DNA of 64,000 nt. Origin: Minisyncoccota bacterium. GTDB taxonomy: Bacteria > Patescibacteriota > Minisyncoccia > Moranbacterales > UBA1568. The stretch is from contig JBPPMJ010000003.1 in assembly GCA_051306005.1 (NCBI GenBank), positions 409,144-473,143 of the forward strand. The letters are read 5' to 3'. Of the stretch, positions 1 through 38,849 are shown piece after piece; within the stretch, counting starts at the first letter, position 1, and every line of letters begins with the position of its first letter. The translations under genes were made by a program, and so were the position numbers. A model generated the notes under the pieces. It saw nothing but the letters and a program-made list of their open reading frames with translations. It was not told the DNA's origin and did no database searches.

Positions 1-565
1 GATTGCGCACCACAAAAACATTCTTTCCTCGTTCTCGCAATTTCTCAGCCAAAAAATTCGTACTCGTCGTGCAAGTAGTCACTACAGGATCAGCCAAAAT
101 TTCCCCCCCTACACCATGCTCATAGAGTTTACGCTCAAAAGTATTCATCGTTTTATAAAAATCCATATATTCTAAATAAACAGGATCATACACCAAATCA
201 TCGGTTTCAAAGATCATCTCTTTTCCCTGCGCCTTGATACGCGTCATCAATACAGCAACGCTTTGTGTATACAAAACCCGATGAAAAACAAAGACGGAAA
301 ATTTATCAGCATAAGAAGTAAGCCATGGGTTATCCTGCAATGTAATAGCAGTACGCACACCCTGTGCTTCCAAGGTTTCTGCGACATAGGTCGTGCGATA
401 ACGCGCACTATCTCCGACACCTCCTGTTATAAAAAGCACATCTCCACTTCCTACCTTCCGAAACATCGCCACAAACGCCTGATAAACACGCTTACCACCG
501 CGTATCATACCATCACGTCTGATGGTATGATACGCCTTTCCAACCTTAATCAAAAAAAGTTTCAT
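1..565 (-). CDS. glycosyltransferase, N-terminal part; 3' end lies outside the window
   Basis: Reverse-strand ATG at 565 overlaps the TGA stop of the upstream gene (ATGA). The translation MKLFLIKVGKAYHTIRRDG...FITGGVGDSARY... runs open to the window edge and looks like an Rossmann-fold glycosyltransferase N-domain. Confidence 0.45.
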   Translation of the reverse strand, partial: MKLFLIKVGKAYHTIRRDGMIRGGKRVYQAFVAMFRKVGSGDVLFITGGVGDSARYRTTYVAETLEAQGVRTAITLQDNPWLTSYADKFSVFVFHRVLYTQSVAVLMTRIKAQGKEMIFETDDLVYDPVYLEYMDFYKTMNTFERKLYEHGVGGEILADPVVTTCTTSTNFLAEKLRERGKNVFVVRN

Positions 566-1779
566 ATTTTTTGCATTGCTTGGAAATATAAATCCTGTAA
601 TTGAAAAGCTGATTGCTCCCAACTAAAGTCTATGGCACGTAGGCGATTCATCTGTCCCTTGGTATCACGTAAAGTTTTCGAATCTATCAAATGGCCGATA
701 GCCTGTGCCAAACCTTCGGCTGTCATCGTCTTCGCATAAACACCGCCTTCACCTAAATATTCACGATTATTCTCTGTTGCAAAACAAGCAATCGGCAGAC
801 CAGCTCCCATATATTGTAACATTTTACCACTTGCTTGACTGGTCGTTGATATTTTTGGATCGACACCAATATCACTTAAACTCAATATTTTCGGTAAATC
901 AAAATAAGAAAGTGGACTAATGATTGTCACGTGTTGTTGAAACACTGCTGTTTCCAAAAATGATGTAATCTGATCAATGGGAAAACCTGCAATAACAAAA
1001 TGCGCTTGCGGATAAAGAGCACAGACAAGTGGTATAGTATCAAACAATAATGGTATACCCTTGTTGGCAATCAAAGCACCTGTATACGTAATAATCACTT
1101 TTTCAGACGGAATAGCAAATGCCTGACGCATCTCTGCAATCACCGTCGGTTCTACATCTGAAACCAGACGTGTTCCATCTAACAGCAACATAGCCGGCTT
1201 CTGTTGCCGATCATGTATATTCATGGCCGTAACATTATCCCAAGAGCTTGCAACGGCAACATCTCCCAAAACATTAATCCGCCTCTCAATCAGTGCAAAT
1301 ACTTTGTGTAAACCAGTAAAGCGTAAATACTGATGAGACACCATTTCTTTGGTCAAGCTGCCATGAAAATCGCCCACAAGCACCATGCGTCGCCAGAACA
1401 AAGCCTTTTGCACCAACCAACCAATAAGTACGCCTTCATGCAGGTGTCCATGTATAATATCTGGACGTTGCGTACGCGCGAGATAAAAAACTTTGCGTAT
1501 CAACATAATATCCAAAACAATTTTCTGCCAATCTGGTCCGGCTTCCAATTTCTTATACCAAAAAAGCCATCGACGTATTCGACGTATTTCTATGGTTGTC
1601 TGAAGATTCTCTGGCAATTCCGCTCCGATATGATACGTGACAATCGTAATCTGGTGCCCCAATTTTTCCAAAGCGAGCGCTTCTTCTAAAATACGAATAT
1701 GTGTTCCGCGATCTGAAAAAAACGGTGTAGGAGCAATAACAAGAATAGTAAGTTTTTTCTTTCCTGATCGCATAAACAC
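562..1779 (-). CDS. glycosyltransferase family 4 (GT-B)
   Basis: 405 aa. The C-terminal half has the GT4-like retaining glycosyltransferase pattern (EGFGLP-type region ...YMGAGLPIAC..., nucleotide-sugar binding fold). It lies in a glycosyltransferase cluster. Confidence 0.7.
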   Translation of the reverse strand: MFMRSGKKKLTILVIAPTPFFSDRGTHIRILEEALALEKLGHQITIVTYHIGAELPENLQTTIEIRRIRRWLFWYKKLEAGPDWQKIVLDIMLIRKVFYLARTQRPDIIHGHLHEGVLIGWLVQKALFWRRMVLVGDFHGSLTKEMVSHQYLRFTGLHKVFALIERRINVLGDVAVASSWDNVTAMNIHDRQQKPAMLLLDGTRLVSDVEPTVIAEMRQAFAIPSEKVIITYTGALIANKGIPLLFDTIPLVCALYPQAHFVIAGFPIDQITSFLETAVFQQHVTIISPLSYFDLPKILSLSDIGVDPKISTTSQASGKMLQYMGAGLPIACFATENNREYLGEGGVYAKTMTAEGLAQAIGHLIDSKTLRDTKGQMNRLRAIDFSWEQSAFQLQDLYFQAMQKI

Positions 1780-1811: not shown

Positions 1812-4325
1812 CTATAATTCTTCGCCCGAAACCATGAGTGTTTCTCCCTCTTTCAATACACCACTAATAATCTTTTGGACAATCACATCTTCAATGGCGT
1901 TTTCGATGAAGCGGTTGATGGAACGTGCCCCGAAACGCGCGTCAAATCCTTTGTGAATAATCATCTCCACAACATCATCAGCAAAAGTGATGATGATATT
2001 CTTTTCTTTTTTCAAACGATCGGCAAACTGTCGCAGTTTGAGCTGAGTTACTGCCTGTAAATCTGATGGTCGCAATGGTTCAAAGAAAATCAAGCCGTTA
2101 AAACGGTTCAGAAATTCCAAACGAAAAATATTTTGTGTCACAATTTGGTCTAACACTTGTTGACGTATTTCCGGCACCGGCACTTTTTGCTGAAGTAAAG
2201 TCTGAATCAAGGGCGCTCCAGCATTGGAAGTGGCGATAATAATCATGTCGCGAAAACTTACTTTGCTTCCGAAGCCATCCGTAATATACCCTTCATCCAG
2301 AATTTGCAAGAAAAGATCCAAGGCACGCGGATAAGCCTTCTCAATTTCATCCAACAACAGGATAGAAAACGGATGTTCACGGGCTAACGTGATGAGTCGC
2401 CCCTGAATGTTTAAAACACGAGAACCAAGTAATCGGTCAATGGACTCGCTAGTCTGGAATTCACTCATATCCAAACGAATCATTTTTTCTTCACTACCAA
2501 AATAATGTTCCGCAAAGGCTTTGGCCGTTTCCGTTTTTCCGACACCGCTCGGTCCCAGAAAAAGGAAACTACCGATAGGACGATTCGTATTACCAAAACC
2601 GGCGCGCGCTTTGCGCATCACTTCCGCCACTTGAGTTACCGCTTCCTCTTGCCCGATAACACGCTGATGCAAAGTCTCCTCCAAATGCAATAACTTTTCC
2701 CGTTCATTTGCTTGTAAGGCACCACTCGGCATACCTGTTTTGAGCGCCACAAACTGATTGACCGTTTCAGGATCAATGTATGACTCACCAGAGCTTTGCC
2801 AAAATAATACTACCTCTTGTGCTAAATCTATGGCACGCTCCGGGAAAGGAACATCCCAATTATAGCGACTCGCTGCCTGAATCAACGCATCCAAACCGCG
2901 TATGGTAAAAATAACCTGTCCCCTCTCCAAAGAAGCAAAATGCTGTATCAGGACATCAAAGGTTTCTGCAGGATCAGTTTCACGCAAGTATACTGCTTCG
3001 AAAAATTTGAGTACTTTTTCGTCTTCAGAAGCAATCATATGATATTGTCCTGTCGGTGCTAGAGCAATCACACAAAAATTCGGATACGCCAGAAACTCAG
3101 CGAACAATGAGGTCAAGTTTGGGCGAGCACGATCCAAACCCAAATACTGCATCAGATCATCTATTATGAGAATAATGTTACCGGCATAGGTCGCCTCGGT
3201 GAAGAGTGTGCGCAAGAAGTGTTCAACGTCTTCTCCGCGATGTACGGCATCATCAACCGCTCGATATAAATCGAAACGCAACAAACGCACGTCTCCTAAA
3301 TCCCGTCTGGAAAAATTATTCTCACGAATCAAACGTGCCAAGTAATGTGTCAAAGTCTTTTTGCCAACGCCAGGTTCACCTACAAGCATCACACTGTTTT
3401 GTACTGGACGTTTCAGAATCACAGTTATCACCTGAAATTCCTCACGTCTTCCGATGAATTCAGCGTCCCTGTATTCTGTCGGATCATGGCGGGACAAATC
3501 CAGACAATAACGGTCAAGGTGTGGCGTATAGGCATATTGCCATCCTTTTCCCATCGGCATTTTTTTGTACAAATTTTCCCATACCCAAAAGCGTCGACGT
3601 AAGGCATGCTGTTTCGCTATCGTGTATTCTAATTTCACTGCTCGCTCATAGACCGTCCGATCAATATTTCGTGTTTGTAAAAAAGTGAGAAGTGATGCTG
3701 TATCATACAAAAAATCCTCTTTCCATAGACCCGTTGGAAGTCCTAAACGTACCAATATGCGATGAAAATATTTTTTTCGGCGTAATTCCACTATGTCCAG
3801 TGTCAGTACATCCTCCTCGGCCAGCATAAAAAGAGACAAGAGAAACATCCCAAATCCCACCATACCGCAGAATAAAAATACCATTCCCCATGCCGATGTA
3901 GAGGTCAGTACTGTCAATATGCCTATCAATAGTAAGAATGGTGCCCCCAAATATAATAGCATTAACGACAAACCAGTCATCAAGACCAACCACCACACGC
4001 CCATTCCGACAGATAATACAGCTACACGAATAAGTGTTCCAAAAAATCTTGCGATCAAATTATTAAACAGCATTTTCAAAAATAAAAGTGGCCGAAACCC
4101 TCGCCACATATGTGAGGTAATATCCCTTTTCCATGGAGCAAAAAGGGCGCCAAGTAGACGTATAAATGAAAAATAATGCGCCACAAAACGCAAGCTATTC
4201 CAGGTCAATATGGACAGGCTCCGCAAACCGCGTAATGGATACCCCAATAAAAAATATTGATTCATACGACAAAAATTAAATAAGCATAACAATACCACGA
4301 TGTACGGTATCACCATTCTTCTCAT
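1812..4325 (-). CDS. membrane-anchored Clp/Hsp100-like double AAA+ ATPase (ClpA/ClpB-related, no N-domain or M-domain)
   Basis: N-terminal ~200 aa carries 4-5 hydrophobic TM helices. D1 has Walker A GEPGVGKKT and Walker B IILIIDDLMQ (DD rather than DE). D2 has Walker A GPSGVGKTE, Walker B LLLDEIEKA, sensor ATSNAG and an Arg finger. The longest ORF runs to 4418 but that would overlap the divergent gene, so I chose the internal Met (MRRM) at 4325. Confidence 0.7.
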   Translation of the reverse strand: MRRMVIPYIVVLLCLFNFCRMNQYFLLGYPLRGLRSLSILTWNSLRFVAHYFSFIRLLGALFAPWKRDITSHMWRGFRPLLFLKMLFNNLIARFFGTLIRVAVLSVGMGVWWLVLMTGLSLMLLYLGAPFLLLIGILTVLTSTSAWGMVFLFCGMVGFGMFLLSLFMLAEEDVLTLDIVELRRKKYFHRILVRLGLPTGLWKEDFLYDTASLLTFLQTRNIDRTVYERAVKLEYTIAKQHALRRRFWVWENLYKKMPMGKGWQYAYTPHLDRYCLDLSRHDPTEYRDAEFIGRREEFQVITVILKRPVQNSVMLVGEPGVGKKTLTHYLARLIRENNFSRRDLGDVRLLRFDLYRAVDDAVHRGEDVEHFLRTLFTEATYAGNIILIIDDLMQYLGLDRARPNLTSLFAEFLAYPNFCVIALAPTGQYHMIASEDEKVLKFFEAVYLRETDPAETFDVLIQHFASLERGQVIFTIRGLDALIQAASRYNWDVPFPERAIDLAQEVVLFWQSSGESYIDPETVNQFVALKTGMPSGALQANEREKLLHLEETLHQRVIGQEEAVTQVAEVMRKARAGFGNTNRPIGSFLFLGPSGVGKTETAKAFAEHYFGSEEKMIRLDMSEFQTSESIDRLLGSRVLNIQGRLITLAREHPFSILLLDEIEKAYPRALDLFLQILDEGYITDGFGSKVSFRDMIIIATSNAGAPLIQTLLQQKVPVPEIRQQVLDQIVTQNIFRLEFLNRFNGLIFFEPLRPSDLQAVTQLKLRQFADRLKKEKNIIITFADDVVEMIIHKGFDARFGARSINRFIENAIEDVIVQKIISGVLKEGETLMVSGEEL

Positions 4326-4389
4326 TGTAGACACATTCAAAACACTTTGCAACCAAAAGACGGATTTGAAAGAATATGCCTCTATCAGG

Positions 4390-4395
4390 TATAAT
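4390..4395 (+). promoter_or_regulatory. TATAAT -10 box about 10 nt upstream of the ATG at 4405, in the divergent intergenic region
   Basis: Exact tataat at 4390-4395 in the ~80 bp gap between the divergent genes. Confidence 0.3.
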
Positions 4396-4404
4396 GAATC
4401 CATT

Positions 4405-6210
4405 ATGCAATTCCCCATAAATACAATAAATCATACTTCTGTTTTTCTGCTCTTTGGATTGAGTTTTGTCGTCTTTGGCTGTTTCTTGTTTATTCTGTCC
4501 ATAAGTGGATTATTCTTTCTGCCCGCCATTCTTATCGGTGCCATTCTCTGTGGCATTATCACCGTTTTGACTGGCATACAATGGCTCCGCTTCGCTCATA
4601 GAGACCTCCATATCGCTGTAATCGGCATCGCTCTGTTCTCCATATTTATCGGCATGACCACTGATCCAACTATATTTTCTGGTCGTGATCAAGGCTCTCT
4701 TAGTGAAGCAGCTTGGCGACTCTCCACTAATGGTACGCTGGCATTTTCTCAGCCAGCCAGCGATCGTTTTTTTGAAATCCATGGTCCTGGTATCGCACTC
4801 AATTTTCCAGGATTCGCCTATACTGGTACCGGACAACTGATTACTCAGTTTCCTCTGGGTTACATCGCCTGGCTTGCAGGTTTTGTCAGTCTGTTTGGTC
4901 TGTCTGGGTTCACGATTGGTAATACGTTACTCCTTTTTCTTTTTTTAAGCACTCTTTATCAACTCATCCGGCAATACAGCGCATCTTTTTATGCGTTCAC
5001 AGGTGTCCTTTTAACTGCCAGTTCATTTTTACCTATCTGGTTTTCCAAAATAACACTCAGTGAAAATCTGGCTGTTTTTCTCTTTACCTTTCTCGTTTTT
5101 AATATCATGCTGGTCTGGCAAACAAATAATCGATTAGCATATTACACTGCCCTACTGACTGTCATCCTGCTCGCCTTTACTCGTATTGAAGGCTTCGCTT
5201 TTCTTATGATGACTATCATTGTATTTGCCTCGCACAAACCAACCCGTCAACTCTGGAAAACTCACCCTCTGACTCAAATTATTCTGCCTGGTAGTCTCTT
5301 CACACTTTTCTTCTTGCAAGACTTCTTAGTCAATCTTCCTTATTATACAATGATTGGTAAAGCCTTGATCAAGTTTCTTGCTACGCTGAATATCAATGGT
5401 ATAGAAAGTAACCTATCGCCAACCTTCACCTCCTTCACACTCGGTTCCATCTTTTTTTTGTATGGTCTTCTAATAATGTTTCTCTTTGGCTCCTTTGGTA
5501 TTCTTTTTTTTCTCAAAGAAAAAAAATATCTGCTTCTGATCCCGACTCTTATTGCCCTCCCCACCTTTCTTTATTTTTTCAATCCCAATATCTCATCCGA
5601 TCATCCATGGATGTTGCGACGCTACCTCTTTTCTCTTTTTCCAACACTACTCTTTTCTGCGATTATGGGCATCGCACTATTATTAGACAAGAAAAAAACC
5701 CTCCCTATCGTCGCGCCTCATGGCAAACGACTTCTTGTCGCCAGCCTCATTTTTAGCGGATGTTTTATTTTACAGTATCCCGCTTGGAAAATAAGCATTT
5801 TTTCTCCAGACAATGATACCCTTTTCGCACAAATAAAAACATTTTCACAAGATTTTTTGAATACCGATCTCGTGCTGGTGGACCGTCGTGTCACTGGCGA
5901 TGGTTTTACTATGTTAACTGGACCAATGCAATTTCTGTTCGATAAACAGATGGTTTATTTTTTTAACCCAACTGACTTGGAACATTTGGACACCACAACA
6001 TTTTCCCATGTCTATCTCTTAGTGCCCGAAAATGGTCAAGAATACTATACTGCGGTCTTCGGTCCACGCCTCACGTTACAAAAAACCGTTGTCTTTTCCT
6101 TGAAACAATTGGAAATATCCCCCTTCAAAAATACATTCTTTCTGTCACCCCCACACATAACCAATACTTCAACCACAAATCTGCTGTTCAAAATTGATAC
6201 ATTACCCTAA
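4405..6210 (+). CDS. large polytopic membrane protein, possibly a GT-C-type glycosyltransferase / PMT-ArnT-like
   Basis: ~600 aa with more than 12 predicted TM helices and a C-terminal soluble domain. The start was set at the internal Met (MQFPINT) to avoid a 118 bp divergent overlap. Confidence 0.45.
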   Translation: MQFPINTINHTSVFLLFGLSFVVFGCFLFILSISGLFFLPAILIGAILCGIITVLTGIQWLRFAHRDLHIAVIGIALFSIFIGMTTDPTIFSGRDQGSLSEAAWRLSTNGTLAFSQPASDRFFEIHGPGIALNFPGFAYTGTGQLITQFPLGYIAWLAGFVSLFGLSGFTIGNTLLLFLFLSTLYQLIRQYSASFYAFTGVLLTASSFLPIWFSKITLSENLAVFLFTFLVFNIMLVWQTNNRLAYYTALLTVILLAFTRIEGFAFLMMTIIVFASHKPTRQLWKTHPLTQIILPGSLFTLFFLQDFLVNLPYYTMIGKALIKFLATLNINGIESNLSPTFTSFTLGSIFFLYGLLIMFLFGSFGILFFLKEKKYLLLIPTLIALPTFLYFFNPNISSDHPWMLRRYLFSLFPTLLFSAIMGIALLLDKKKTLPIVAPHGKRLLVASLIFSGCFILQYPAWKISIFSPDNDTLFAQIKTFSQDFLNTDLVLVDRRVTGDGFTMLTGPMQFLFDKQMVYFFNPTDLEHLDTTTFSHVYLLVPENGQEYYTAVFGPRLTLQKTVVFSLKQLEISPFKNTFFLSPPHITNTSTTNLLFKIDTLP

Positions 6211-6221
6211 CAAATAACCTT

Positions 6222-7370
6222 ATGTCATGGACAGAACCCGTACTTCCGATTCCATCAGCATGGCGCTACTCTTATTGGCGTTGGCGATTTGTCCTTTACC
6301 TCGCCAGCTTCATTATAACTTTATTTTTTACCCTAAGTTTTCTCTTTCCGTCCTTTACTTTTTTCTTCAATTTTGAAATCCCTGGCTCGAATAAAAATAC
6401 CATCTTAAAACCTCACTCTCCAACTGGTAATGATCAAAGTAATGGGAAAATACAGTCCACAGATTCTCTCATTGGAAATATGAACATAAGCGGTAATTTT
6501 TCTGAAGCTCAGATCAACATTGCTCTGGAACAAAAATCACCCGTACCAAAAACACTGGATGTTTCTCTTCGTAAATCATATTTCGCGTTCCTTTTTCCAG
6601 ATGGTTCACCGGTTACCAGTTTTCCTCAAGCCACACTCTATCGAATAAGTGATACCTACTATGAATTGAGAGATGGCGTCCTCTTTCCATTTATCAGCGA
6701 TGCCGCGTACCTTTCTCGATATCCCGATGCGTACGCCATTCCAACAACGACGGAATTTTTAACGAAATATCCTCTTTCAGAAAACAAGATTGGTTTTCGT
6801 GTCGGTACGTTAATCTCTTTTGCAGATGGTGTTTTCTTGGTCAATAGCGAAACAGAAGTACGTCCTATCGGCAGTGCGGATATTTTTCTTTCTTTTGGAT
6901 ATAGTTTTCAGGACGTCATTGCCGTTCACGAAGAAGAACTGGGCATCTATACACGAGGACGTATCTTTTTGATGCATGATCAGCATTCAGACGGTACCCT
7001 CTTTTTGGATCAAGACACTCACACCTATTATTTGATAGATCAAGGCACCAAACGACCCCTGCTCGACACTTCGTATCTGAATTTTCTTTTAACGACACAC
7101 ACAGCAATTCAAGCTTCACAAAAAACAAGTGAATGTGTCCTGATACCAACATGGTTTAGTAAATCTTTACAATGTTACATGCCCCTCAAAGAAATCCAAA
7201 ACAACCTCGGAAACAATTTTGAAATTACGATTCATGGTGATGCGGACAATAATATTGAACTCAAGTCACTTCGGGTCATATTGATAACCGAAAAAAACAA
7301 ACAAAACACTCTCTTCATTCTCTCGCGCATCAAACAACGTGTTTTGGATCGTTTCGGTCTATCATTATAA
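6222..7370 (+). CDS. hypothetical membrane-anchored or secreted protein
   Basis: 382 aa with an N-terminal TM or signal-anchor (FVLYLASFIITLFFTLSFLF). The rest is probably extracytoplasmic. It lies 12 nt after the previous gene, so it is likely in the same operon. Confidence 0.5.
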   Translation: MSWTEPVLPIPSAWRYSYWRWRFVLYLASFIITLFFTLSFLFPSFTFFFNFEIPGSNKNTILKPHSPTGNDQSNGKIQSTDSLIGNMNISGNFSEAQINIALEQKSPVPKTLDVSLRKSYFAFLFPDGSPVTSFPQATLYRISDTYYELRDGVLFPFISDAAYLSRYPDAYAIPTTTEFLTKYPLSENKIGFRVGTLISFADGVFLVNSETEVRPIGSADIFLSFGYSFQDVIAVHEEELGIYTRGRIFLMHDQHSDGTLFLDQDTHTYYLIDQGTKRPLLDTSYLNFLLTTHTAIQASQKTSECVLIPTWFSKSLQCYMPLKEIQNNLGNNFEITIHGDADNNIELKSLRVILITEKNKQNTLFILSRIKQRVLDRFGLSL

Positions 7371-7398
7371 TAGGCTTTTTATTTCTTATTACTATTCT

Positions 7399-7821
7399 AT
7401 GTCTCTCTCTCAACATCTCTTTACACCTTACATGGATAATCTTAAAAAAAATGGTGGCCTCACAGTATCGTACGCCTTATTAGCAGAAGCACTGATACTC
7501 GGTTATACTGGATTTTTCCTTCTATTAATGTTGGAGATACTCTTTCCAACATTAATCGCTGACCGCATCAACCTCTCACTGGCTTTCGCTATTCTTATGT
7601 TTTTTTCTTTGGTACTTGGAGCACTCGGACAGGCATTAGACGTACACTTTACGCCGACTATCCATAAAAAAAGCCCTCTCCTATGGATCGGACTTTTTTT
7701 GATTTTTAGCGTATCAATGATTTCTTTGTATACGTTTCCGTGGCCAATCATGCTCTTGGTGACTCTCTCACTCTTATGGATAAGTCAACTATTCTGGCGC
7801 ACACTCATCAACCAAAAATAA
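7399..7821 (+). CDS. small integral membrane protein
   Basis: About 140 aa with 4 hydrophobic helices. It is the third gene of the operon. The ORF could extend upstream to 7339. Confidence 0.45.
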   Translation: MSLSQHLFTPYMDNLKKNGGLTVSYALLAEALILGYTGFFLLLMLEILFPTLIADRINLSLAFAILMFFSLVLGALGQALDVHFTPTIHKKSPLLWIGLFLIFSVSMISLYTFPWPIMLLVTLSLLWISQLFWRTLINQK

Positions 7822-7858: not shown

Positions 7859-9316
7859 TCAACGTAATGTTTCCAAATCAATCACCTCATCAATGCGAAT
7901 TTGTGCCACAAAATCAGGTACATGAGAAACAAGAATCATGGCGCCACGATATTGATCAAGAGCCTTGGCAATGACGGGCAAATGTCTAAAATTGATATGG
8001 TTTGTTGGTTCATCCAAAATCAAAAGGTCGGGTTCTTCCGCATATAAACGGGCAAACATAAGCAAGCCCTTCTGACCTTCGGAGAGACTCGCAATCTTAT
8101 TGCGCAACAAATCAGATGGAATGAGGAATTGAGCGGCAATGCGATACGCCATCTCATTATTTTTTTCCTTCATGACTGCCAACAATGATGCCATGACCGT
8201 ATCTTCAAAGTCCAATGTAGAAAAATCCTGGCGATAATAACCAATTTTCATACCCTCTCCGATAGAGACGCGGTCTGTATCGCCACGCGCAATCGCTTCC
8301 AAAAATGTGCTCTTACCGATACCATTGGGGCCAGAAATAAAGAGATGCGTATTTTTCTTGAGTACCATATCTACTTTTTTGATAGCCGGACCAAGTTCCG
8401 TTAATACAGATACTGTTTTAATATGTACGATAGGTCCGATTGGTTCACGACATGGAATCGTAAAATCCGGCAAAGTCTTATCTTCCTTGCGTACATCTAC
8501 CTTGTTTTCTTCCAATTCAGTGGCCAAATCACGCATACGTTTGGCAACTGCACGCAACTTTCCCCCCTTGTTGGCAAAGACGTTTGCCTGATCTTTCTTC
8601 TCTTGAATCGTACGCTCCAAACGAACATTCTCACTCTGGGCTTTGGCAATACGACGAGAGATCTCTTCGACTACATCGTAATAATTTCCCGTATACTGCT
8701 CAATTTTGTGCGTGAAAACATCCAGATAAAACACGCCTTCCGTAAAAGAATTCAGAAACTCGGCATCATGCGAAATCACGATACACGTTTTTGAATAATG
8801 TATTAAAAATTCGGTCAAGTGTTCAATACCAGCATAGTCCAAATTGTTGGTTGGTTCATCCAATAAAAGAATATCTGGATCTTGAATCAAAGCGGATGCT
8901 AAAAGCAGACGCGCTTGTTGTCCGCCAGAAAAATTACGTATCTTTTTATCCAACGGAGGTAACGGCAGATTGACGATTTCCAAAACTTCCTTGATACGTA
9001 AAGCCAATTCCCATTCTTTACCACGAAAAAACGGCATGAAAAATTCTTCCAACGTCACATCTAATTGATCACGTGGAATAGTCTGACGACCCAGCGCCAC
9101 GACAGAATCCCTCGCAAGAGAAATGCGTCCACTTTGTGGTTTTTCTTCGCCAGTAATCAATTTGAAGAGTGAACTTTTTCCAGCGCCATTCTGTCCCATC
9201 AAAGTAATTTTAGCACCGCGACGCATCGAAAAACTTACCTCATCCAGGATGGGTTTCTTGTGTCCATATTCAAAAGATACGTTATCAAAACGCAATACCA
9301 CGTTATCTTGGGTCAT
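7859..9316 (-). CDS. ABC-F family ATPase with two tandem ABC domains and no TMD (EttA/Uup-like)
   Basis: Two Walker A motifs (GQNGAGKSS and GPNGIGKST), two ABC signatures (SGGQQARL and SEGQKGLL) and two Walker B motifs (ILLLDEPTN and LLILDEPTN), joined by a charged linker. Confidence 0.85.
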   Translation of the reverse strand: MTQDNVVLRFDNVSFEYGHKKPILDEVSFSMRRGAKITLMGQNGAGKSSLFKLITGEEKPQSGRISLARDSVVALGRQTIPRDQLDVTLEEFFMPFFRGKEWELALRIKEVLEIVNLPLPPLDKKIRNFSGGQQARLLLASALIQDPDILLLDEPTNNLDYAGIEHLTEFLIHYSKTCIVISHDAEFLNSFTEGVFYLDVFTHKIEQYTGNYYDVVEEISRRIAKAQSENVRLERTIQEKKDQANVFANKGGKLRAVAKRMRDLATELEENKVDVRKEDKTLPDFTIPCREPIGPIVHIKTVSVLTELGPAIKKVDMVLKKNTHLFISGPNGIGKSTFLEAIARGDTDRVSIGEGMKIGYYRQDFSTLDFEDTVMASLLAVMKEKNNEMAYRIAAQFLIPSDLLRNKIASLSEGQKGLLMFARLYAEEPDLLILDEPTNHINFRHLPVIAKALDQYRGAMILVSHVPDFVAQIRIDEVIDLETLR

Positions 9317-9442: not shown

Positions 9443-10558
9443 CTACCTCAAAATAGTCTCAAGCGTTTTTTTGGCACATCTATCCCAGGAAAATTGTTGC
9501 AATTGTGCGTGTCCTCTCTTAGTCAATTCAGTACGCAACTCAGTGTCACTCCACAGGTGCTCCATTTTTTCCGCTATATCTTCCACGGACAAAGCATTGA
9601 CATATAATCCGGCACGTCCGCCTACTTCACGCAAACTGGAATTGCTTGCGAGCAATACCGGCACCGAAGAAGCGAAAGCCTCCAAAACAGGTAGCCCAAA
9701 ACCCTCATACAATGATGGGAACACAAAAAATCTTGCTGCCTGATACAGTACACGCACTGTTTCAAAAGAAACACGTCCAGTCAAAATAATATCATTCGCA
9801 TAAGGACTTTCTTTACAGAGACGAATAATATCACGTGATAACCATGCAGATTCTCCTGCCAATACAAGTTTCATCTCAAACATACTTTGTTTGGCGATAT
9901 GAAATGCCTCGATCAAGCGTATAAGATTTTTTCGTGGTTGCAAAGCACCAACATACAACATGTAAGCATCTGGAGTCAACGCATAAGGAGTCAGTGTCTG
10001 TTGTATCGTTTCAACGGAACAACGTTGTCCGAAAAACTCACCATCAAATCCATGATGAATGACTGTGATACGATTTTCTGGCAGATGTGGAAAAAATGTG
10101 AGCAAATCGTCTTTGGTGGATTGCGAAACAGCAATCAGTTTATCGGCTCGTGCGACCACGGTATTCAGTAAGATATTTAATTTCATTTGATCTTTTGTTG
10201 GAAATGTTTCTGGGTAGTGTTTGAAAGCAAGATCATGAATAGTAGCCGTGACATTGCTATGGCGTGGTATCCAAATCGGCGCTGCCTGAATCGGCAAAAA
10301 AACCCGATCCGGACGATCCCGAAATAATTCTAAGGTAAAACGGGTTTGCATCCAAGCAACAGGAAAAGGACACTGCCTCTCCGTATAATTCGTAAAAATT
10401 GGGGGTGCCAATACAGGATTGAACGTATCACGATGATAAAGAATAAATTGATTCCATGTGTCCAGCACACCAAAATATTTCAGCAATTGTTTTATGTAGA
10501 CACGTGTCCCATCGATACGCTGATGATCCAAATCTGATGCTTGTATGGCGATACGCAT
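9443..10558 (-). CDS. glycosyltransferase family 4
   Basis: 371 aa with the typical C-terminal GT4 motif region ...FVFPSLYEGFGLPVLEAFASSVPVL.... Confidence 0.8.
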   Translation of the reverse strand: MRIAIQASDLDHQRIDGTRVYIKQLLKYFGVLDTWNQFILYHRDTFNPVLAPPIFTNYTERQCPFPVAWMQTRFTLELFRDRPDRVFLPIQAAPIWIPRHSNVTATIHDLAFKHYPETFPTKDQMKLNILLNTVVARADKLIAVSQSTKDDLLTFFPHLPENRITVIHHGFDGEFFGQRCSVETIQQTLTPYALTPDAYMLYVGALQPRKNLIRLIEAFHIAKQSMFEMKLVLAGESAWLSRDIIRLCKESPYANDIILTGRVSFETVRVLYQAARFFVFPSLYEGFGLPVLEAFASSVPVLLASNSSLREVGGRAGLYVNALSVEDIAEKMEHLWSDTELRTELTKRGHAQLQQFSWDRCAKKTLETILR

Positions 10559-12619: not shown

Positions 12620-13858
12620 CTACAATGTCACTATGATTTTTTTCTCCTCGCCGTTTCGCAGAATTTGCAACTCAACCACATCTCCCTGATTAAAACGTGA
12701 CAACACAGCGGAAAGAGGCGTACTGAGATCAATTGCTATATCTGCCACCGCCAGAATGATATCTCCAGCTTGAATCCCCGCTTGCATCGCAGGAGACTGA
12801 GCAATCACAGCAAGTCCCGTCTTGCCTGATGGTGCATAGATAAGTGCGCCACGATCAATCGGTAATGCCTGGCTCACCGCCAAAGACGGAGTAATGGAAA
12901 CATAGTAGGCTCCAAAAATAGCACGTTTATTCAATGTGCCTTGCAGAGCACGATCAAAAGAGGCACGCACGACATTTGCAGGAATCAAAAATGGTTTCAG
13001 TATGCCGTCTAAGGTCACTACACCGATCAAGCCGATCATTTCTCCATTGTAACCAATTACCGGTCCCCCGACAAAATCTTGCTCATTTTGCATATCCGTT
13101 TCCATAACACCCTCCCACTTTTCGGAAGAAGCTACCGTTTTGCCAGATAAATTGAAAGTAGGGTCATAAGCACTGACAATACCTGCTGCCAAACGGCTCT
13201 GATACGATGTAAGCGCACCTGCGATAGCAATGGCTTTTTTGCCCACGCGAGTATCATCAGAATTAGCGAAAGCGATAGCGGGGGTATTCTCAACATCGCG
13301 CAAACGTAAAAAAGTGAGATTTAACAAAACATCATGCCCAACCATATCAGCACTATATTTTCGCGCATCAAAAAGAAACACTGTGTATTCTTTCTCTTCT
13401 ACAGCAGTACTTATAAGAGGGCGTTCATCATAAAAAACGACTAAACCATCATTGGTCAATAACACCCCGTTGCTTATCATGACTGATTTGTTCTCCGTTT
13501 TGTCCTGTGTTGCCGTCTTGGTACGCGACAAAGACACCACTCTCACTACGGCGGTTGCTGGCTGAGAAACGATTTTTTCTATTGAATCATCCTCACGTAT
13601 GACAATTTGCTCAGTTTTATTGATAATAGTTGTCTGTGCGTTCAACTTTTGAAATATCGGAGAACGGTTCAGTGCAGGAATAACAGAAAGATGCGGTATA
13701 GCATACCGATCAAACCATATTCCTCCGAAACCACTGATCAAAACAATAAGAATGCCTAGCAGACTCCAGAAAATCAACTTACGAAACAATGAAAAGTTCA
13801 TATACGAAAGATATACCCTATGAAAAATTGAATAACACGAATACTTGCAGATTAGCAC
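12620..13858 (-). CDS. HtrA/DegP-family homologue with a PDZ domain and a degenerate catalytic triad (pseudo-protease)
   Basis: N-terminal TM anchor, a trypsin-like core and a C-terminal PDZ (GIQAGDIILAV...). The Ser motif is DFVGGPV instead of GNSGGP, and the His position is TNDGLVV instead of TNxHVV. Compare the intact paralogue at 47404-48705. Confidence 0.6.
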   Translation of the reverse strand: MLICKYSCYSIFHRVYLSYMNFSLFRKLIFWSLLGILIVLISGFGGIWFDRYAIPHLSVIPALNRSPIFQKLNAQTTIINKTEQIVIREDDSIEKIVSQPATAVVRVVSLSRTKTATQDKTENKSVMISNGVLLTNDGLVVFYDERPLISTAVEEKEYTVFLFDARKYSADMVGHDVLLNLTFLRLRDVENTPAIAFANSDDTRVGKKAIAIAGALTSYQSRLAAGIVSAYDPTFNLSGKTVASSEKWEGVMETDMQNEQDFVGGPVIGYNGEMIGLIGVVTLDGILKPFLIPANVVRASFDRALQGTLNKRAIFGAYYVSITPSLAVSQALPIDRGALIYAPSGKTGLAVIAQSPAMQAGIQAGDIILAVADIAIDLSTPLSAVLSRFNQGDVVELQILRNGEEKKIIVTL

Positions 13859-14127
13859 ATCTGTCTAATACTGACAACAAGAAATGGTGAATTCTAAGCC
13901 TATTACCAATTTTTTGGCATGAATTACCAGAAGATTGGGGAGGTGGTGAGGAATTTCTGAGAACACCTCTTCTATGGCCTTCCGTTTTCCTAAGAAGAAG
14001 TATTACGAGAGATAATGAAACAGAAAGTGGTTTGCGTGCCGAGACAAAGAAGTTCTTACAGATACCTGCCTCAGAAAGAGGATGGTAAATCTTAAATTTA
14101 CCCAAAATATTTTGTCTATCCCGTTGT

Positions 14128-14895
14128 TCATCTAACCAAATGCCATGGCGTACTGAAGAGCAAGATACCCATCAAACAAAGAAAAAACGATATCTGCCAC
14201 ACCGCTTTACGAAGAGATAATGTTCTATGAAAGGCATCAAATGAAATATCCCAGAGGATAAAAAAGAAAATTAACACAAGTGCTCCCGATGTCAAATATC
14301 CAAAAGGCCAAAAACTCATTATCCAAGCCATCTCTGCCATCAATAACCCTAAGAGGACACTATAAACCCAAAGCCTGGTCTTTTCGATACCAATACGCTC
14401 AATACCGATAAATGTTTCATGACTCGTCAGCATCGTGCCAAAAAAATAAACTAACATCAATCCCCAAAGTGGAAAAGAAAAATTGAGATAAAAACCATAT
14501 ACGCCAGAATAGAAAAAGAATAATCCAGAAACTGCTGAAGTATTCAGAAGCGCTTGCGCTGTTTTGTCTTTAGGCGCATGACGTAAACGATAGGCGCCCA
14601 GCAACGCCGTATAATACATCATGGTACTCAAGACGACGAACATTTGCTGTTTAGTAAACGTATCAATAAGTCCAAACAAAATCGGTACCGCGATTGCGAG
14701 TAATCCCGGCAAAAAAGCATCTGAATATCGCTTGGTCAACTTATGACTTGCTACAAGAGAAATAATTAAGAGAGGTAAGATAGCAAAGAAATACCAGTTC
14801 CATGTTGGTACGACCGGATTGAGAGCCGTCAATTCCAAGCCAACCAAAAAAATGAAACTCCAAAAGAAAATAGTGAAATGGAACAACATAAACAA
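14128..14895 (-). CDS. hypothetical polytopic membrane protein
   Basis: 255 aa with about 8 hydrophobic helices and no recognisable motif. Confidence 0.5.
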   Translation of the reverse strand: MFMLFHFTIFFWSFIFLVGLELTALNPVVPTWNWYFFAILPLLIISLVASHKLTKRYSDAFLPGLLAIAVPILFGLIDTFTKQQMFVVLSTMMYYTALLGAYRLRHAPKDKTAQALLNTSAVSGLFFFYSGVYGFYLNFSFPLWGLMLVYFFGTMLTSHETFIGIERIGIEKTRLWVYSVLLGLLMAEMAWIMSFWPFGYLTSGALVLIFFFILWDISFDAFHRTLSLRKAVWQISFFLCLMGILLFSTPWHLVR

Positions 14896-14942
14896 TGGGC
14901 ATGCCTAAAAAATACCAACCTTTTACATGACGTGTTGTCTGC

Positions 14943-17582
14943 TTACTTCTTTTTTTTGACTGCTTTTTCCGTAAAGGTAATTTTTTCTTTTTTCATATCC
15001 ACTTCAATACTCTCTCCACTGTGCACTTTTTTCTCCAAAATTTCAAGTGCCAAGGGATCAAGAAGCATGTTTTGGATCACTCGACGTAATGGCCGTGCCC
15101 CATAGAGCGGGTCAAATCCGATCTTGGCAAGATGTACACGCAGTGCGTCAGAAAAAATCAATTTTATATCCCGCTCTTGCAGGCGTCTAGCCACCATATC
15201 CAACTGCACATCCACGATTTGTCGCAACATTGCCGGCGACAAAGAATGAAAAAGCACAATTTCATCAATACGGTTTAAAAACTCAGGGCGGAACGTCTCA
15301 CGTAAACTCGTCAAAATACGATCACGAATTTCTTTTTCAGAAACCACACTATCATTTTCTTGCTCTTCTTTGAATCCAAGGGTCTGGGCTCGTACCAAAA
15401 TTTCCGAACCAACATTAGAAGTCAAAATAATGACTGTATTTTTGAAATTCACGGTACGTCCTTTAGCATCCGTCAAACGCCCATCATCAAGAATCTGCAA
15501 CAAAATATTGAACACACTTGGATGTGCCTTCTCAATCTCATCAAACAAAATAACACTATACGGTCGACGACGGATACGTTCGGTTAATTGCCCACCTTCT
15601 TCATAACCAACATAGCCTGGCGGTGAACCAATCAACTTTGCCGTCGAATGGGATTCCATATATTCCGACATATCTATACGAACCAATGCCTTTTCATCAT
15701 CAAACAAAAATTCCGCTAAAACCTTGGCGAGTTCAGTCTTACCTACACCTGTCATCCCGAGAAAAATAAATGATCCGATCGGACGTGTTTCTTCCGCCAG
15801 TCCGGCCCGAGAGCGACGAATGGCGTTGGCAACGGTATTGATTGCTTCATCCTGTCCAATGACTCGTTTTTGAAGCGCTTTTTCCATAGTAATCAACTTC
15901 TCTGACTCCTTTTCCAGCATCTTGGCTACAGGAACACCTGTCGCCCGTGATACTACGAATGCAATATCCTCTTCAGTAATTTCCTCTTTCAAAATAAATC
16001 CGGTTTTCTGTAAATTTTCCAGTTTTTTTTCTTCATCACGGATATGTTTTTCTAGTTCTGGAATCTTTCCATAACGAATTTCCGCCACGCGATCCAACTC
16101 GCCATTCCGCTCTGCCATTTCAGCTTCTGATTTAAGTTTATCTTTTTCCGCCTTATGCTCACGGGATGTCATAATCAATTCACGTTCAGAACGCCACTGC
16201 AAAGACAACTTTTGTGATTGTTCTTTTAGCGTTGCCAATTCCTGATCAATGGTTTCAATTTTCTTTTTGTTCTGCGTATCATTTTCTTTGGATAATGCTC
16301 GTTTTTCAATTTCCAAACGACGAATGCTACGCTCCATCTGATCCAGCTCCGTCGGCATCGAATCAATCTCCATTCTTCGTAAAGAAGCTGCCTCATCCAC
16401 CAAATCAATTGCCTTGTCAGGCAAAAAACGATCATTAATATAACGACAAGAAAGTTTGACCGCGGCAATCAAAGCATCGTCAGTTATTTTGACGCCATGA
16501 TGCAAAGCATACTTTTCCTTGATACCACGCAAAATGGCAATCGCATCTTCTTCCGATGGCTCACTCACATACACCGGCTGAAAACGTCGCTCTAAAGCTG
16601 CGTCCTTTTCAATATATTTTTGATACTCTTTGAGTGTCGTGGCCCCGATGGCACGCAATTTACCTCGTGCTAATGCTGGTTTCAACATATTAGAAGCATC
16701 TAAAGACCCCTCAGTCGCCCCAGCTCCAACCAACGTGTGAAGCTCGTCAATAAACAAAATACAACGATCAGCCGAACGCTCCACTTCTTTCAAAATTGCT
16801 TTCAACCGTTCCTCAAATTCACCACGAAACTTGGCACCGGCTAACAATGAACCAAGATCCAAAGAAATAACCTCTTTGTTTTTCAAATTTTCCGGAACGT
16901 CTCCTGCCACAATACGTTGTGCCAATCCCTCGACGATTGCTGTTTTTCCAGTGCCTGCCTCCCCAATCAAAACAGGATTATTCTTGGTGCGACGAGATAA
17001 GACCTGCATCACACGCCGTATCTCTTCATCTCGCCCGATGACTGGATCCAGCTTGTCTTCACGCGCCAACTGAGTGATATTGATTGCGTATTTTTCCAAC
17101 GCTCGATAGGTCTGTTCTGGTTCCTGGTTTTCCACTTGCTGAGTCCCCCGTACTTGTGACAAAATTTTCAAAACCGCATCATACTGAATACCAGCCTCAT
17201 GCAACAATTTCGTCACTGGATGCGTTATCGTCAAAAGTGCCAAAAGCATATGTTCTGTTGAAACGAAACTGTCACCTATTTTTTGCATTTCCTTTTCCGT
17301 AGTGTTGAACACCTGCACCAAAACAGGAGACACAGAAATTTGTCCCACTGATCCCGTCTCACCCTGCGGCAAATGATCCATTGTATCTGCAACCTTCCCT
17401 TTCAGTTTTTCGATATCAACCTGTAACTTCCCAAGAATGACCGGAATAATGGAATCAGCTTGCATGAGTAACGCATATAGCAGATGCGCGACATCCATTT
17501 GTGAATTGCTTCGTGATAAGGCGATTTCCTGAGCGTTTTTCAACGCTTCCTGACTCTTAAGAGTCAATTTATTAAAATCCAT
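14943..17582 (-). CDS. clpB: ATP-dependent chaperone ClpB
   Basis: N-domain ([14 protein letters not shown]...), D1 ([15 protein letters not shown]), a long coiled-coil M-domain and D2 ([19 protein letters not shown]). The start was set at the Met matching the ClpB N-terminus. Confidence 0.92.
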
Positions 17583-17683
17583 AGAGTTTGTTTGTTCAAC
17601 AAATAAATAAGAGATACCAAACATTATTTCTCATTTTTTGTCTGCTGTTTCTCTTTTGTTAAGAATATCATATATCTAAAAAA

Positions 17684-17710
17684 TTAGCAATCACCATATG
17701 AGAGTGCTAA
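17684..17710. promoter_or_regulatory. CIRCE operator (HrcA binding site) about 100 bp upstream of clpB
   Basis: TTAGCAATC-N9-GAGTGCTAA, one mismatch from the consensus TTAGCACTC-N9-GAGTGCTAA. Confidence 0.75.
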
Positions 17711-17756
17711 TTAAAAATATCTCTATAAAGCCATTTTTTATATTCTTGCTCTTTTT

Positions 17757-18170
17757 TCAAGGCAAGTTATTTTTTCCAGCGACTTGAAAATTAACATAAA
17801 GATTCAGTAGATAATTCCAAAATCCAGTCACCAGGGCGATAAGAATCCTGGAAAACAGATAATGCCAATGCCATACCGTCACCAACAGTGCCATCCCCCC
17901 AATCACCAAACCAAAACCGCACAGGGCGATGAGTAAAAATATCCCATAACTGGAACGGGTCGATTGCACGCTTCCACGAAAAATAAATTTCCGACTGCAG
18001 AAATAATTGATTGACACGGCTGTAGCAAAAGCGATGCCCGAAGCCATAACTGGATGCCAACCAAATACATCTGTCAAGAGAAATAATAGTCCGAGATCAA
18101 AAATAAACGTCGATATTCCAACTACGGAATATCGCATCAACCTCAATATCCCACGTCTATCAATACGCAT
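17757..18170 (-). CDS. GtrA-family small membrane protein (polysaccharide synthesis/translocation associated)
   Basis: 137 aa with 4 TM helices and the GtrA-like signature (RYSVVGISTFIFDLGLLFLL...NYLLNLYVNF). Confidence 0.65.
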   Translation of the reverse strand: MRIDRRGILRLMRYSVVGISTFIFDLGLLFLLTDVFGWHPVMASGIAFATAVSINYFCSRKFIFRGSVQSTRSSYGIFLLIALCGFGLVIGGMALLVTVWHWHYLFSRILIALVTGFWNYLLNLYVNFQVAGKNNLP

Positions 18171-18180
18171 ACAAACTTAA

Positions 18181-18774
18181 TCAATCATGTACCGCTTCTT
18201 CTACTGCAAACCGCGGAAACAACAAGTCATAAAATGCCTGCTTCTCTTCTTCATACAAACGCAAACGATACAATGTTTCCTTGAGATAACCCTTACATCG
18301 AAAGCGTGGATGTTCCACCAGATATAATAATTCGTCAAAATCTATCAGACGTCTCTCTATTTTTTCTCCTGGATCGGGCATACCGTCATGCACCTGTACA
18401 CAATCACGCGCAATAAAAATATGACAAGCCCCCTGAACACTGCCTACGCTTTCAATCGTTTTCCATAAAAAAAGGTCATCTGATCGATGGCCTGTTTCTT
18501 CCAAAAGTTCCCGATGAGCTGCGATCAACGGCTCTTCGTTGGGATCCACCCTTCCTCCGGGAAAAGAAATAAATTTCGGATGTGTGGGTTGTTCCTGTTC
18601 CAGTATTATTACCCGTCCATCTACCATAGCAATCATTTCAACGCTATCGGGATGTACGACTTTCTCAAAAATGGCTGTTGATCCATCATATAGCTCCTGG
18701 TGCCATTGATAAACCCGAAAAACCACTCCCTCAAAAACAAGCTCTGCGGAATCTGGTATGTTTTTTGATTGCAT
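18181..18774 (-). CDS. NUDIX hydrolase
   Basis: Nudix box GGRVDPNEEPLIAAHRELLEETG (GX5EX7REUXEEXGU). Confidence 0.85.
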   Translation of the reverse strand: MQSKNIPDSAELVFEGVVFRVYQWHQELYDGSTAIFEKVVHPDSVEMIAMVDGRVIILEQEQPTHPKFISFPGGRVDPNEEPLIAAHRELLEETGHRSDDLFLWKTIESVGSVQGACHIFIARDCVQVHDGMPDPGEKIERRLIDFDELLYLVEHPRFRCKGYLKETLYRLRLYEEEKQAFYDLLFPRFAVEEAVHD

Positions 18775-19199
18775 ACGCCAGAATATTCCACTATTTAGAC
18801 TGTATCGTGTCTCTATACAAAGTATATCATCAATGGCCGAAAAGAGTATAGGGCTCCTAGATCAATACTACCAAAAACTTCAAGTACCTACAAGTCAACC
18901 TCAGAGCAAGGCATCAGCCACCCCCTTCATCTCCTTCATATTCGGATGCGTGATGTAAATGATGATGAATTTCATAGACTATTACAACTGATTATTTCTC
19001 AAAGTATAGTAGTTTTCTGATTGAGGTAAAAGAAAATCATTTTCAATATCTATCAAAAACTGTTTCAAATGAACATAAGTATCTTTACAAAATAGAACGT
19101 TTATTTCTCCATTCAGTCAACTCCATCGTATCTTCAAGTGCTATTGGTGGGGACTTCTAGCTATTAATTCTAATTTAGAAAAAAATAATAAAAACTCGT

Positions 19200-19240
19200 C
19201 TAAAATAATGTAAGAGCGGAGGGAAAACCCTCCGCTCTTA
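19200..19240 (-). terminator. rho-independent terminator downstream of dnaK
   Basis: Perfect 11-bp stem agagcggaggg / ccctccgctct with an aaaa loop, followed by a T-run on the minus strand. Confidence 0.8.
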
Positions 19241-19248
19241 TTCTACTC

Positions 19249-21183: not shown

Positions 21184-21235
21184 ATGTGTATAATATTACG
21201 AATAATGTTTTGTATAAAATTAGAACTCTGTGCTT

Positions 21236-21844: not shown

Positions 21845-21858
21845 ACGCGTTTTGCTTT

Positions 21859-38827: not shown

Positions 38828-38849
38828 AGAAGAAATGTTCAAAGATAAG

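Follow-up and report, generated by a model that had tools for sequence, protein, structure and literature searches.

We analyse a window of 64,000 nt of DNA from a Minisyncoccota bacterium (Minisyncoccota is the NCBI name of the Patescibacteria), and within it the locus of a Clp/Hsp100-like double-AAA+ ATPase of 817 residues that is predicted to be membrane-integral. The open reading frame (ORF) of the ATPase lies on the minus strand (1812..4265), has matches in Pfam and NCBIfam, and encodes a protein identical to that of an NCBI record (MGK2848966.1, Minisyncoccota, 'AAA family ATPase'). On the plus strand, divergent from it, lie a polytopic glycosyltransferase-like protein of 601 residues with a predicted GT-C fold (4405..6210; NCBI MGK2848967.1), ORF3 (6222..7370; 382 residues), which on the Kyte-Doolittle scale has one N-terminal transmembrane helix followed by a predicted extracytoplasmic domain of about 330 residues, and ORF4 (7399..7821; 140 residues), for which the same measure gives several hydrophobic segments, as in a small polytopic membrane protein. 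All three divergent membrane-protein genes listed in a preliminary description of this DNA are confirmed (4405-7821), with a predicted GT-C fold for the first of them. The ATPase is followed, after only 32 bp and in the same orientation, by a gene for a GT4 (GT-B fold) glycosyltransferase (562..1779, minus strand; Pfam Glyco_trans_1_4, Glycos_transf_1 and Glyco_transf_4), and the two genes probably form one operon. The ATG of a third gene (565-563) overlaps the GT4 stop codon; this gene (1..565, minus strand) is cut by the window edge, so that only its start is present, and from its translation and from the gene order of the related locus L001 it would, by position, be the counterpart of the second glycosyltransferase-like gene there.

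All residue numbers below refer to the 817-residue protein that begins at ATG 4265. This start is almost certainly the true one, because the NCBI record and about 100 full-length relatives (816-820 residues) share the length that it gives. A longer frame from ATG 4418 (868 residues) was considered and rejected: its 51 extra codons are spurious and overlap the upstream region of the neighbour, and in a Kyte-Doolittle scan it is these codons that contributed one of the transmembrane helices previously counted. The GT-C-like gene is called by NCBI from 4300 (636 residues), its relatives cluster at 596-603 residues, and from this family length we place its start most likely at 4405, which leaves a divergent gap of 139 bp (4266..4404) between the two genes. 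The best sigma-70-like site in this gap, at 4366-4395 on the plus strand (TTGAAA-18-TATAAT, 11/12), stands just before ATG 4405, and a weaker one is found on the minus strand at 4352-4324. The scan of the 139-bp region returned no more sites than the shuffled expectation and is weak evidence only; we regard 4366-4395 as a suggestive promoter.

The first 80 residues of the ATPase (4026..4265, minus strand) form a conserved module, hereafter the N-module, made of a helix (residues 4-31), a basic loop with the motif PWKRD (4122-4136) and a helix of the pattern NLIxR..G..xR. In the family alignment F32, P44, W45, R47, G56, N69, R73, G76 and R80 are invariant or nearly so, and in residues 44-80 seven Lys or Arg stand against one Asp or Glu, an excess of positive charge from which this segment is predicted to be cytoplasmic. 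We found no relative of the N-module in Pfam, among PDB folds or with hhalign. Residues 81-148 (3822..4025, minus strand) are 68 consecutive uncharged residues, with an invariant P109 and Kyte-Doolittle peaks of up to 2.4. An AlphaFold model of the N-terminal part (predicted local distance difference test, pLDDT, 81.6) has helices at 4-31, 59-121 and 125-148, the latter two at a pLDDT of about 90, and then a small helical linker. By hydropathy, charge and model together, the ATPase is clearly membrane-embedded, in agreement with the anchoring first proposed for it. The four to five transmembrane helices proposed at the same time are not recovered: the 68 residues are modelled as two long helices, which corresponds to 2-4 predicted membrane spans. 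Nor does the N-terminus look like a mere anchor, being a conserved module that is a separate gene in other lineages. Homology with these split forms, described below, favours hairpins and a cytoplasmic N-module, but in the clade of the window a third hydrophobic segment (residues 125-148) is poorly compatible with a simple even-span model.

The membrane region is followed by a stretch that the alignment marks as a cytoplasmic helical linker (residues 149-262; 3480..3821, minus strand). It ends in YTPHLDRYCLDLS, which resembles what we take to be the TPxLDxxxxDLT motif preceding D1 in ClpC and ClpB. A remnant of the Clp_N domain in this linker was considered and rejected, since comparison of the N-terminal part of the family with the N-domain of ClpB in hhalign gave a probability of 0.2, and Pfam finds no Clp_N (PF02861) in the ATPase.

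What follows the linker is a pair of tandem AAA+ modules, the second of AAA_2 type and succeeded by a ClpB_D2-small domain, which is the arrangement that defines the two-ring Clp/Hsp100 proteins. The closest solved relative is ClpB of T. thermophilus (1qvr, 5e-93), with query residues 249-503 (D1) aligned to chain residues 152-404 and 497-812 (D2) to 521-837; the query runs on continuously where the alignment skips residues ~404-521 of the T. thermophilus protein (about 120 residues), so the M-domain is missing, and Pfam finds no AAA_lid_9 in the ATPase. The NCBIfam models for ClpB, ClpA, ClpV, ClpK and ClpG all match far under their cut-offs, the ClpB model TIGR03346 at 361.6 bits (cut-off 1232) and the ClpA model TIGR02639 at 319.2 bits (cut-off 993), in one continuous alignment over D1-D2. 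There is no IGF, IGL or VGF tripeptide for docking to ClpP after D2 sensor-1, and among 30 relatives no conserved [ILV]-G-[FL]; instead the segment after sensor-1, NAGAPLIQTLLQQKVPVPEIRQQV, aligns gap-free to GSPLILEGLQKGWPYERIRDEV of T. thermophilus ClpB. No Peptidase_M41 match was found by Pfam. In sequence, then, the ATPase reads as a class-I Clp/Hsp100 protein whose D2 is ClpB-like and whose domain plan, without the M-domain, is ClpA-like. The preliminary description was right on all three absences (N-domain, M-domain, ClpP-docking loop). Because it has neither M-domain nor ClpP loop, we take the protein to be neither a cytosolic, DnaK-coupled disaggregase of the ClpB type nor a partner of ClpP. 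As a separate observation, one distant relative (P0088, 870 residues, locus L004) has an insertion of about 37 residues after D2 sensor-1, at residues ~700-740, in the place that the ClpP-docking loop occupies in ClpA and ClpC.

The first of the two modules is degenerate in alignments to ClpB and across the family (D1, 2751..3479, minus strand). Its Walker A motif is kept (GEPGVGKK, 3357-3380). The pore loop AVHRGED (3228-3248) is without the tyrosine of AKYRGEFE in E. coli ClpB, and the corresponding loop in the window's own ClpB is AKFRGEFE. The Walker B motif IILIIDDL (3153-3176) aligns with ILFIDELH of ClpB, and at the Arg-finger position VLKFFE (2997-3014) stands against ERRFQ. Pfam recognises D1 through generic P-loop models only. 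According to these alignments D1 has a P-loop, while neither catalytic Glu nor Arg finger nor pore Tyr is left. It had been claimed that the D1 Walker B consists of hydrophobic residues followed by DD and that D1 binds ATP and hydrolyses it poorly; the ClpB alignment agrees with the first of these, with no Glu conserved, and the kept Walker A together with the lost Glu and finger supports the second as a prediction. A change of E to D as a specific feature does not hold up, as the dipeptide at this position across the family is EN (90), ED (22), DE (21), DD (18), DN (15), EH (12), RD (12) or one of several others. The canonical DE is rare, and the DD of the window is one state of a generally decayed D1 site.

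The second module, with its small domain (D2, 1830..2708, minus strand; Pfam AAA_2 1.3e-39, ClpB_D2-small 3.7e-18), is catalytically complete by comparison with ClpB. It keeps Walker A (GPSGVGKTE, 2529-2555), Walker B (ILLLDEIEKA, 2334-2363), sensor-1 (IIATSNAG, with the core ATSN; 2217-2240), the Arg finger (EFLNRFN, 2097-2117) and sensor-2 (FGARS, 1920-1934), and in the family GPSGVGKTE, ILLLDEIEKA, ATSN, EFLNRF and FGARS are invariant or almost so. The pore-1 loop, GSRVLNIQGR (2397-2426), is non-aromatic and 4 residues shorter than in ClpB. We collected 283 family members, in 239 of which this loop could be scored: it is six residues long in 211, compared with ten in ClpB, it has no aromatic residue in 223, and its sequence varies across the family. 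Loss of both aromatic pore loops is a hallmark of the family. D2 had been described as looking intact, and this is correct for its catalytic motifs and incorrect for its pore-1 loop. In the other 16 of the 239 relatives the shortened loop does contain Tyr or Phe, frequently in the form [IV]Y directly before the conserved Gly (for instance REKGIY or REKNVY), which could be a grip residue that was retained or re-invented.

The state of the pore loops bears directly on what such a protein can do. In ClpB, the Tyr and Ar-Phi motifs of the pore loops are the substrate grips, with Y251 and Y653/V654 holding the substrate and Y653A severely defective, and a gripping aromatic residue is also found in Hsp104 and other AAA+ translocases (PMC6546751). 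Torsins, which are without the pore-loop consensus, have been judged unlikely to thread (PMC4999309). By these comparisons the loss of the aromatic pore loops makes processive threading of polypeptides by the window ATPase unlikely. Hence, while the preliminary description was right to see a double-AAA+ ORF of the Clp/Hsp100 kind, its label 'unfoldase' is doubtful, and the classical extraction by threading that the label implies is at odds with two non-aromatic pore-1 loops, the D2 loop being so in 223 of 239 members. Similarly, its proposal of a role outside cytosolic disaggregation agrees with the missing M-domain, and extraction as its version of that role is unsupported in the classical, threading sense.

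To see how far this protein family extends, consider its N-terminal part by itself. With a profile built from the N-terminal 262 residues we searched 1.84 billion cluster representatives (50%-identity clusters) and obtained 1,885 clusters at E ≤ 1e-3, of which 1,203 at E ≤ 1e-10. Nearly all long matches are 800-900 residues in length, which shows module and ATPase to be fused in them. Where a source is named, it is one of Moranbacteria, Woesebacteria, Portnoybacteria, Paceibacterota, Saccharibacteria and 'Patescibacteria group', and the family is apparently restricted to Patescibacteria. In 12 loci (L071, L073-L076, L078-L081 and L083-L085; from Saccharibacteria, Paceibacterota, Portnoybacteria and others) we find a split form, in which the N-module and a hydrophobic hairpin make up a gene of their own of 119-147 residues, which abuts, closely precedes or overlaps the gene of a Clp-like ATPase of about 810-860 residues (for example L079:1792-2169 and L079:2171-4708). 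These ATPases have an N-terminal hydrophobic hairpin of their own and show the same D2 loop deletion and the same absence of D1 Tyr, Arg finger and IGF loop; several of them retain a DE Walker B in D1. Because the N-module is a separate gene elsewhere, the window protein can be seen as the fused form of a two-component system. The sequences point to an origin by fusion of a small, conserved PWKRD membrane protein with a membrane-anchored ClpA/ClpB-like ATPase, and to repeated loss of hydrolysis in D1. In databases the family goes only by the names 'AAA family ATPase' or 'ClpA/ClpC'; our full-text literature searches found no account of it, and a transposon-sequencing (Tn-seq) paper on Saccharibacteria does not mention it (PMC10633639).

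We now turn to the genes that accompany the ATPase in its relatives. A first search for loci, with a 19-sequence N-terminal alignment, found no stretch conserved enough and was repeated with 7 closer sequences, which led to 85 loci (L001 and L014 lie on the same contig). These were searched with hidden Markov models of the GT-C-like protein, ORF3 and ORF4; gene calls are longest ORFs, and the search pattern skews the set to Moranbacteria-like genomes. Of 67 evaluable loci with a fused ATPase, 51 have the GT-C-like gene right beside it in divergent orientation, and the whole triad of GT-C-like gene, ORF3 and ORF4 occurs in 45 of the 59 loci with more than 4 kb of upstream sequence. This divergent arrangement is kept down to 43% identity between the ATPases. 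Directly downstream of the ATPase, on its strand, at least 34 of 62 related loci have a GT4 homologue, beyond which come a further glycosyltransferase and an NAD-dependent epimerase; some loci also have genes there for an acetyltransferase and a methyltransferase. The genetic link to envelope genes that was initially noted in the window alone is therefore a conserved one, extending to the GT4 genes of the operon.

Outside this arrangement the neighbours change. A Woesebacteria relative (32% identity) has an unrelated GT-C protein of the PMT_2 type (27.5 bits, cut-off 26.1) directly upstream on the same strand. The possibility that the loci without the triad carry some other GT-C protein was looked into and dropped: in L025, L027, L029 and L072 it is NrdR and ComEC that adjoin the ATPase, the latter with Competence and metallo-beta-lactamase domains. 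The neighbours of 522 and 1060 residues in L006 gave no family match. Directly downstream of the split-type ATPase in six loci (L076, L078, L079, L080, L083 and L084; for example L079:5042-6362) we find mraZ-rsmH (mraW), the start of the division/cell-wall (dcw) cluster, with MraZ 77-86% identical among them. The sequences suggest that a link to the envelope is recurrent in the family and that the specific partnership with the GT-C protein characterises the Moranbacteria-like clade, which includes the window. On its own, we record that the locus of the distant relative P0088 (L004) is full of toxin-antitoxin genes (AbiEii, HicA).

How well is the neighbour placed among glycosyltransferases? 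Its AlphaFold model (pLDDT 87) retrieves with Foldseek ALG12 (8.9e-8), PglB (4e-6) and ArnT (2e-5), and also ALG9, STT3, AftA, Pmt4 and DPY19, at a Foldseek probability of 1.0 and with template-modelling scores of 0.43-0.50 to ALG12, PglB and ArnT, so that the protein is modelled as a GT-C fold. An invariant G93-R94-D95-Q96-G97 (GRDQG, 4681-4695) follows the early transmembrane helices, at the point where the first predicted external loop begins, and its position is compatible with the Asp being the catalytic acidic residue. The neighbour therefore shares its predicted fold with GT-C glycosyltransferases and has an invariant motif with an Asp in what is predicted to be its first external loop, but it falls outside the curated sequence families PMT_2 and LA_3751/LA_3752: no Pfam family matches the window protein at threshold, PMT_2 matches weakly in 2 of 29 relatives, and NF047440 (LA_3751/LA_3752) scores 26.7 bits against a cut-off of 200 (2.3e-6). 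ORF3 and ORF4 are co-conserved with the GT-C-like gene. ORF3 has conserved Cys305 and Cys318 in its predicted external domain and, with 14 members searched in Pfam and searches of NCBIfam and PDB sequences, matches nothing; ORF4 belongs to no known family, and its identification as a GtrA-like flippase was tried and discarded (hhalign probability 0.2 against the window's own GtrA).

Further out in the window, the gene after ORF4 is convergent to it and encodes an ABC-F protein (7859-9316, minus strand) that falls under the cut-off of a ribosomal-protection-like NCBIfam model; a GT4 gene comes next (9443-10558, minus strand), and this ABC-F and GT4 pair also flanks the triad in L001 and several other loci. 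The minus strand from 12620 to 22617 is a dense stretch of proteostasis and envelope genes, comprising an HtrA-like protease with a PDZ domain (12620-13858), a DUF5656 protein (14128-14895), a genuine ClpB (14943-17582), GtrA (17757-18170), a NUDIX protein (18181-18774) and hrcA-grpE-dnaK (19249-22617). The separate ClpB of the preliminary description is confirmed by TIGR03346 (1251 bits, cut-off 1232; 14943-17582/17624). Farther along are an ORF of 652 residues with no NCBIfam match at E ≤ 1e-10 (30920-32878, minus strand), a weak FtsA-like gene that adjoins it (32865-34178) and mraY (37724-38920).

As a working model, and tentatively, we favour the view that the protein is a D2-driven, membrane-integral remodeller or coupler of the envelope, acting through its linker and membrane module on the GT-C/ORF3/ORF4 set. 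In the hexamer that the protein would form, D1 would face the inner surface of the membrane and lie below a ring made of the protein's own helices. D1 would serve as a static, ATP-bound assembly ring and D2 as the only motor. Linker and membrane module would relay the ATP cycle to envelope machinery embedded in the membrane, which would thereby be remodelled, assembled or released. For this genome and most of its Moranbacteria-like relatives, the likely client or partner would be the divergent GT-C protein with its two small membrane proteins, a set that together with the co-operonic GT4 enzymes may build a surface glycoconjugate.

Several points weigh against this model. The GT-C gene is absent from 16 of the 67 fused loci and from all split-type loci, and because it is clade-specific the GT-C link is not the ancestral function of the family. 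The genes may lie side by side because envelope genes are regulated together, and not because their products are physical partners. Also, the argument against threading rests on the absence of motifs. The loop does have a Tyr or Phe in 16 of 239 relatives, and a substrate might still be gripped by aliphatic residues, by the D2' loop or by the membrane module.

The remodeller model has a bolder form, to which we give a rather low probability: a Clp/Hsp100 machine that has dispensed with threading altogether, in which hydrolysis in D2, acting via membrane helices that are either fused to the ATPase or supplied by a dedicated small membrane protein, would power a step of envelope assembly outside the cytoplasm or within the membrane. 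Such a step might be the presentation or release of the acceptor, or of the lipid-linked donor, of the GT-C glycosyltransferase. If true, AAA+ machines would gain a new functional class, and the Patescibacteria an envelope system that defines their lineage.

The alternative that survives best, though we consider it unlikely, is the one of the preliminary description, namely that the ATPase is an extractase or unfoldase for the quality control of membrane proteins, pulling damaged or mislocalised proteins through its channel like an Msp1 or FtsH ring and releasing them to proteases or chaperones. An N-terminal anchor would indeed set the D1 entry face at the membrane, in the geometry of FtsH and Msp1 (PMC7018516), D2 is a complete motor of the ClpB type, the D1 loop retains the RGE(D)xE scaffold of the KYRGEFE loop of ClpB, and proteostasis genes (HtrA, ClpB, hrcA-grpE-dnaK) lie within 20 kb. 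Against it, both pore-1 loops are non-aromatic, with the D2 loop variable and 4 residues shorter family-wide, and the ClpB counterparts contact the substrate, Y653A being severely defective (PMC6546751). Furthermore, there is neither a protease domain nor a ClpP loop, and the conserved neighbours are genes of glycan synthesis or division, not proteases.

Should one instead start from the breadth of the family, the protein might be a housekeeping regulator of division or cell-wall synthesis in all Patescibacteria, with the GT-C link a secondary, lineage-specific synteny. The family is very widespread, the split pair lies immediately upstream of mraZ-rsmH, at the dcw start, in six loci, and the GT-C triad is missing from a quarter of the fused loci. 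Yet the six mraZ loci are close kin (MraZ 77-86%) and amount to one evolutionary observation, the dcw-type genes of the window (mraY, ftsA-like) are more than 25 kb away, and the divergent GT-C arrangement persists down to 43% ATPase identity; we regard a general role of this kind as improbable.

A still less probable proposal is that the substrate is not a protein, and that D2 drives the flipping or export of a lipid-linked glycan or powers the external GT-C reaction by mechanotransmission. No flippase or exporter can be recognised in the glycan cluster (GT4s, epimerase, GT-C and two unknown membrane proteins), the loops that grip proteins are gone, and the top-conserved W, K, R and R of the N-module would sit at the predicted membrane interface, a composition that might be expected of a site for phosphates or lipid head groups. 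But the membrane region is small, with 2-4 helices per subunit and no polar lining residues, members outside the Moranbacteria-like clade have no glycan context, and we know of no AAA+ protein that transports lipids or glycans. An anti-phage defence ATPase of the ClpB-like kind (e.g. Dodola DolB) is hardly credible, given that the PADLOC DolB match (4.9e-33) covers generic D2 only (residues 518-681) and is far weaker than the ClpB matches, that neither DolA nor another defence partner is found and the neighbours have no PADLOC matches, and that dozens of genomes share a stable neighbourhood of biosynthetic genes in conserved synteny.

Class-I Clp/Hsp100 ATPases are the textbook case of soluble threading machines, and we are aware of no description of one that is integral to the membrane. 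A two-ring membrane family of about 1,900 clusters, with one dead ring and no aromatic loops, thus probes the reach of the threading paradigm, and the window protein is probably an uncharacterised kind of cell-envelope motor and not an ordinary unfoldase. The family offers a handle on envelope biogenesis in the Patescibacteria, where surface glycans and host-attachment structures are almost unknown. Its fused and split forms define a two-component system, PWKRD protein and ATPase, that is testable in the genetically tractable Saccharibacteria, and the GT-C link points to a concrete client.

Finally, we compare the window ATPase with the systems that it most resembles. With ClpB it shares Walker A and B, sensor-1, the Arg finger, sensor-2 and the D2-small domain, and D2 aligns end to end; it differs in having no Clp_N, no M-domain, a D1 that appears dead, neither the KYR nor the GYVG pore motif, and a membrane-integral N-terminus. 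ClpA, ClpC and ClpE likewise have two AAA+ modules without a long M-domain, but the window ATPase lacks their IGL/VGF tripeptide, N-domain and pore Tyr. A membrane anchor at the N-terminus and, after it, an AAA ring with its entry turned to the membrane is a layout established for Msp1 (PMC7018516) and common to FtsH, Msp1/ATAD1 and, by prediction, the window ATPase. However, FtsH and Msp1/ATAD1 are single-ring classical AAA proteins with aromatic pore loops, FtsH with an M41 protease in addition, whereas the window ATPase is a two-ring Clp-type protein without aromatic pore loops or protease. The torsins of the endoplasmic reticulum and nuclear envelope, which are related to the ClpB D2 class, are also membrane-associated, Hsp100-related and without the pore-loop consensus. 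They have a single ring with no Arg finger of its own and need LAP1 or LULL1, while the window ATPase has a D2 with its own Arg finger and, besides, a second, degenerate ring. HSP101 of the Plasmodium PTEX translocation assembly is a class-I Hsp100 that works at a membrane; it is soluble, recruited by partners, and keeps the pore-loop Tyr. In the window ATPase, by contrast, the membrane part is covalently fused to the motor, and elsewhere in the family it is supplied from the adjacent gene.

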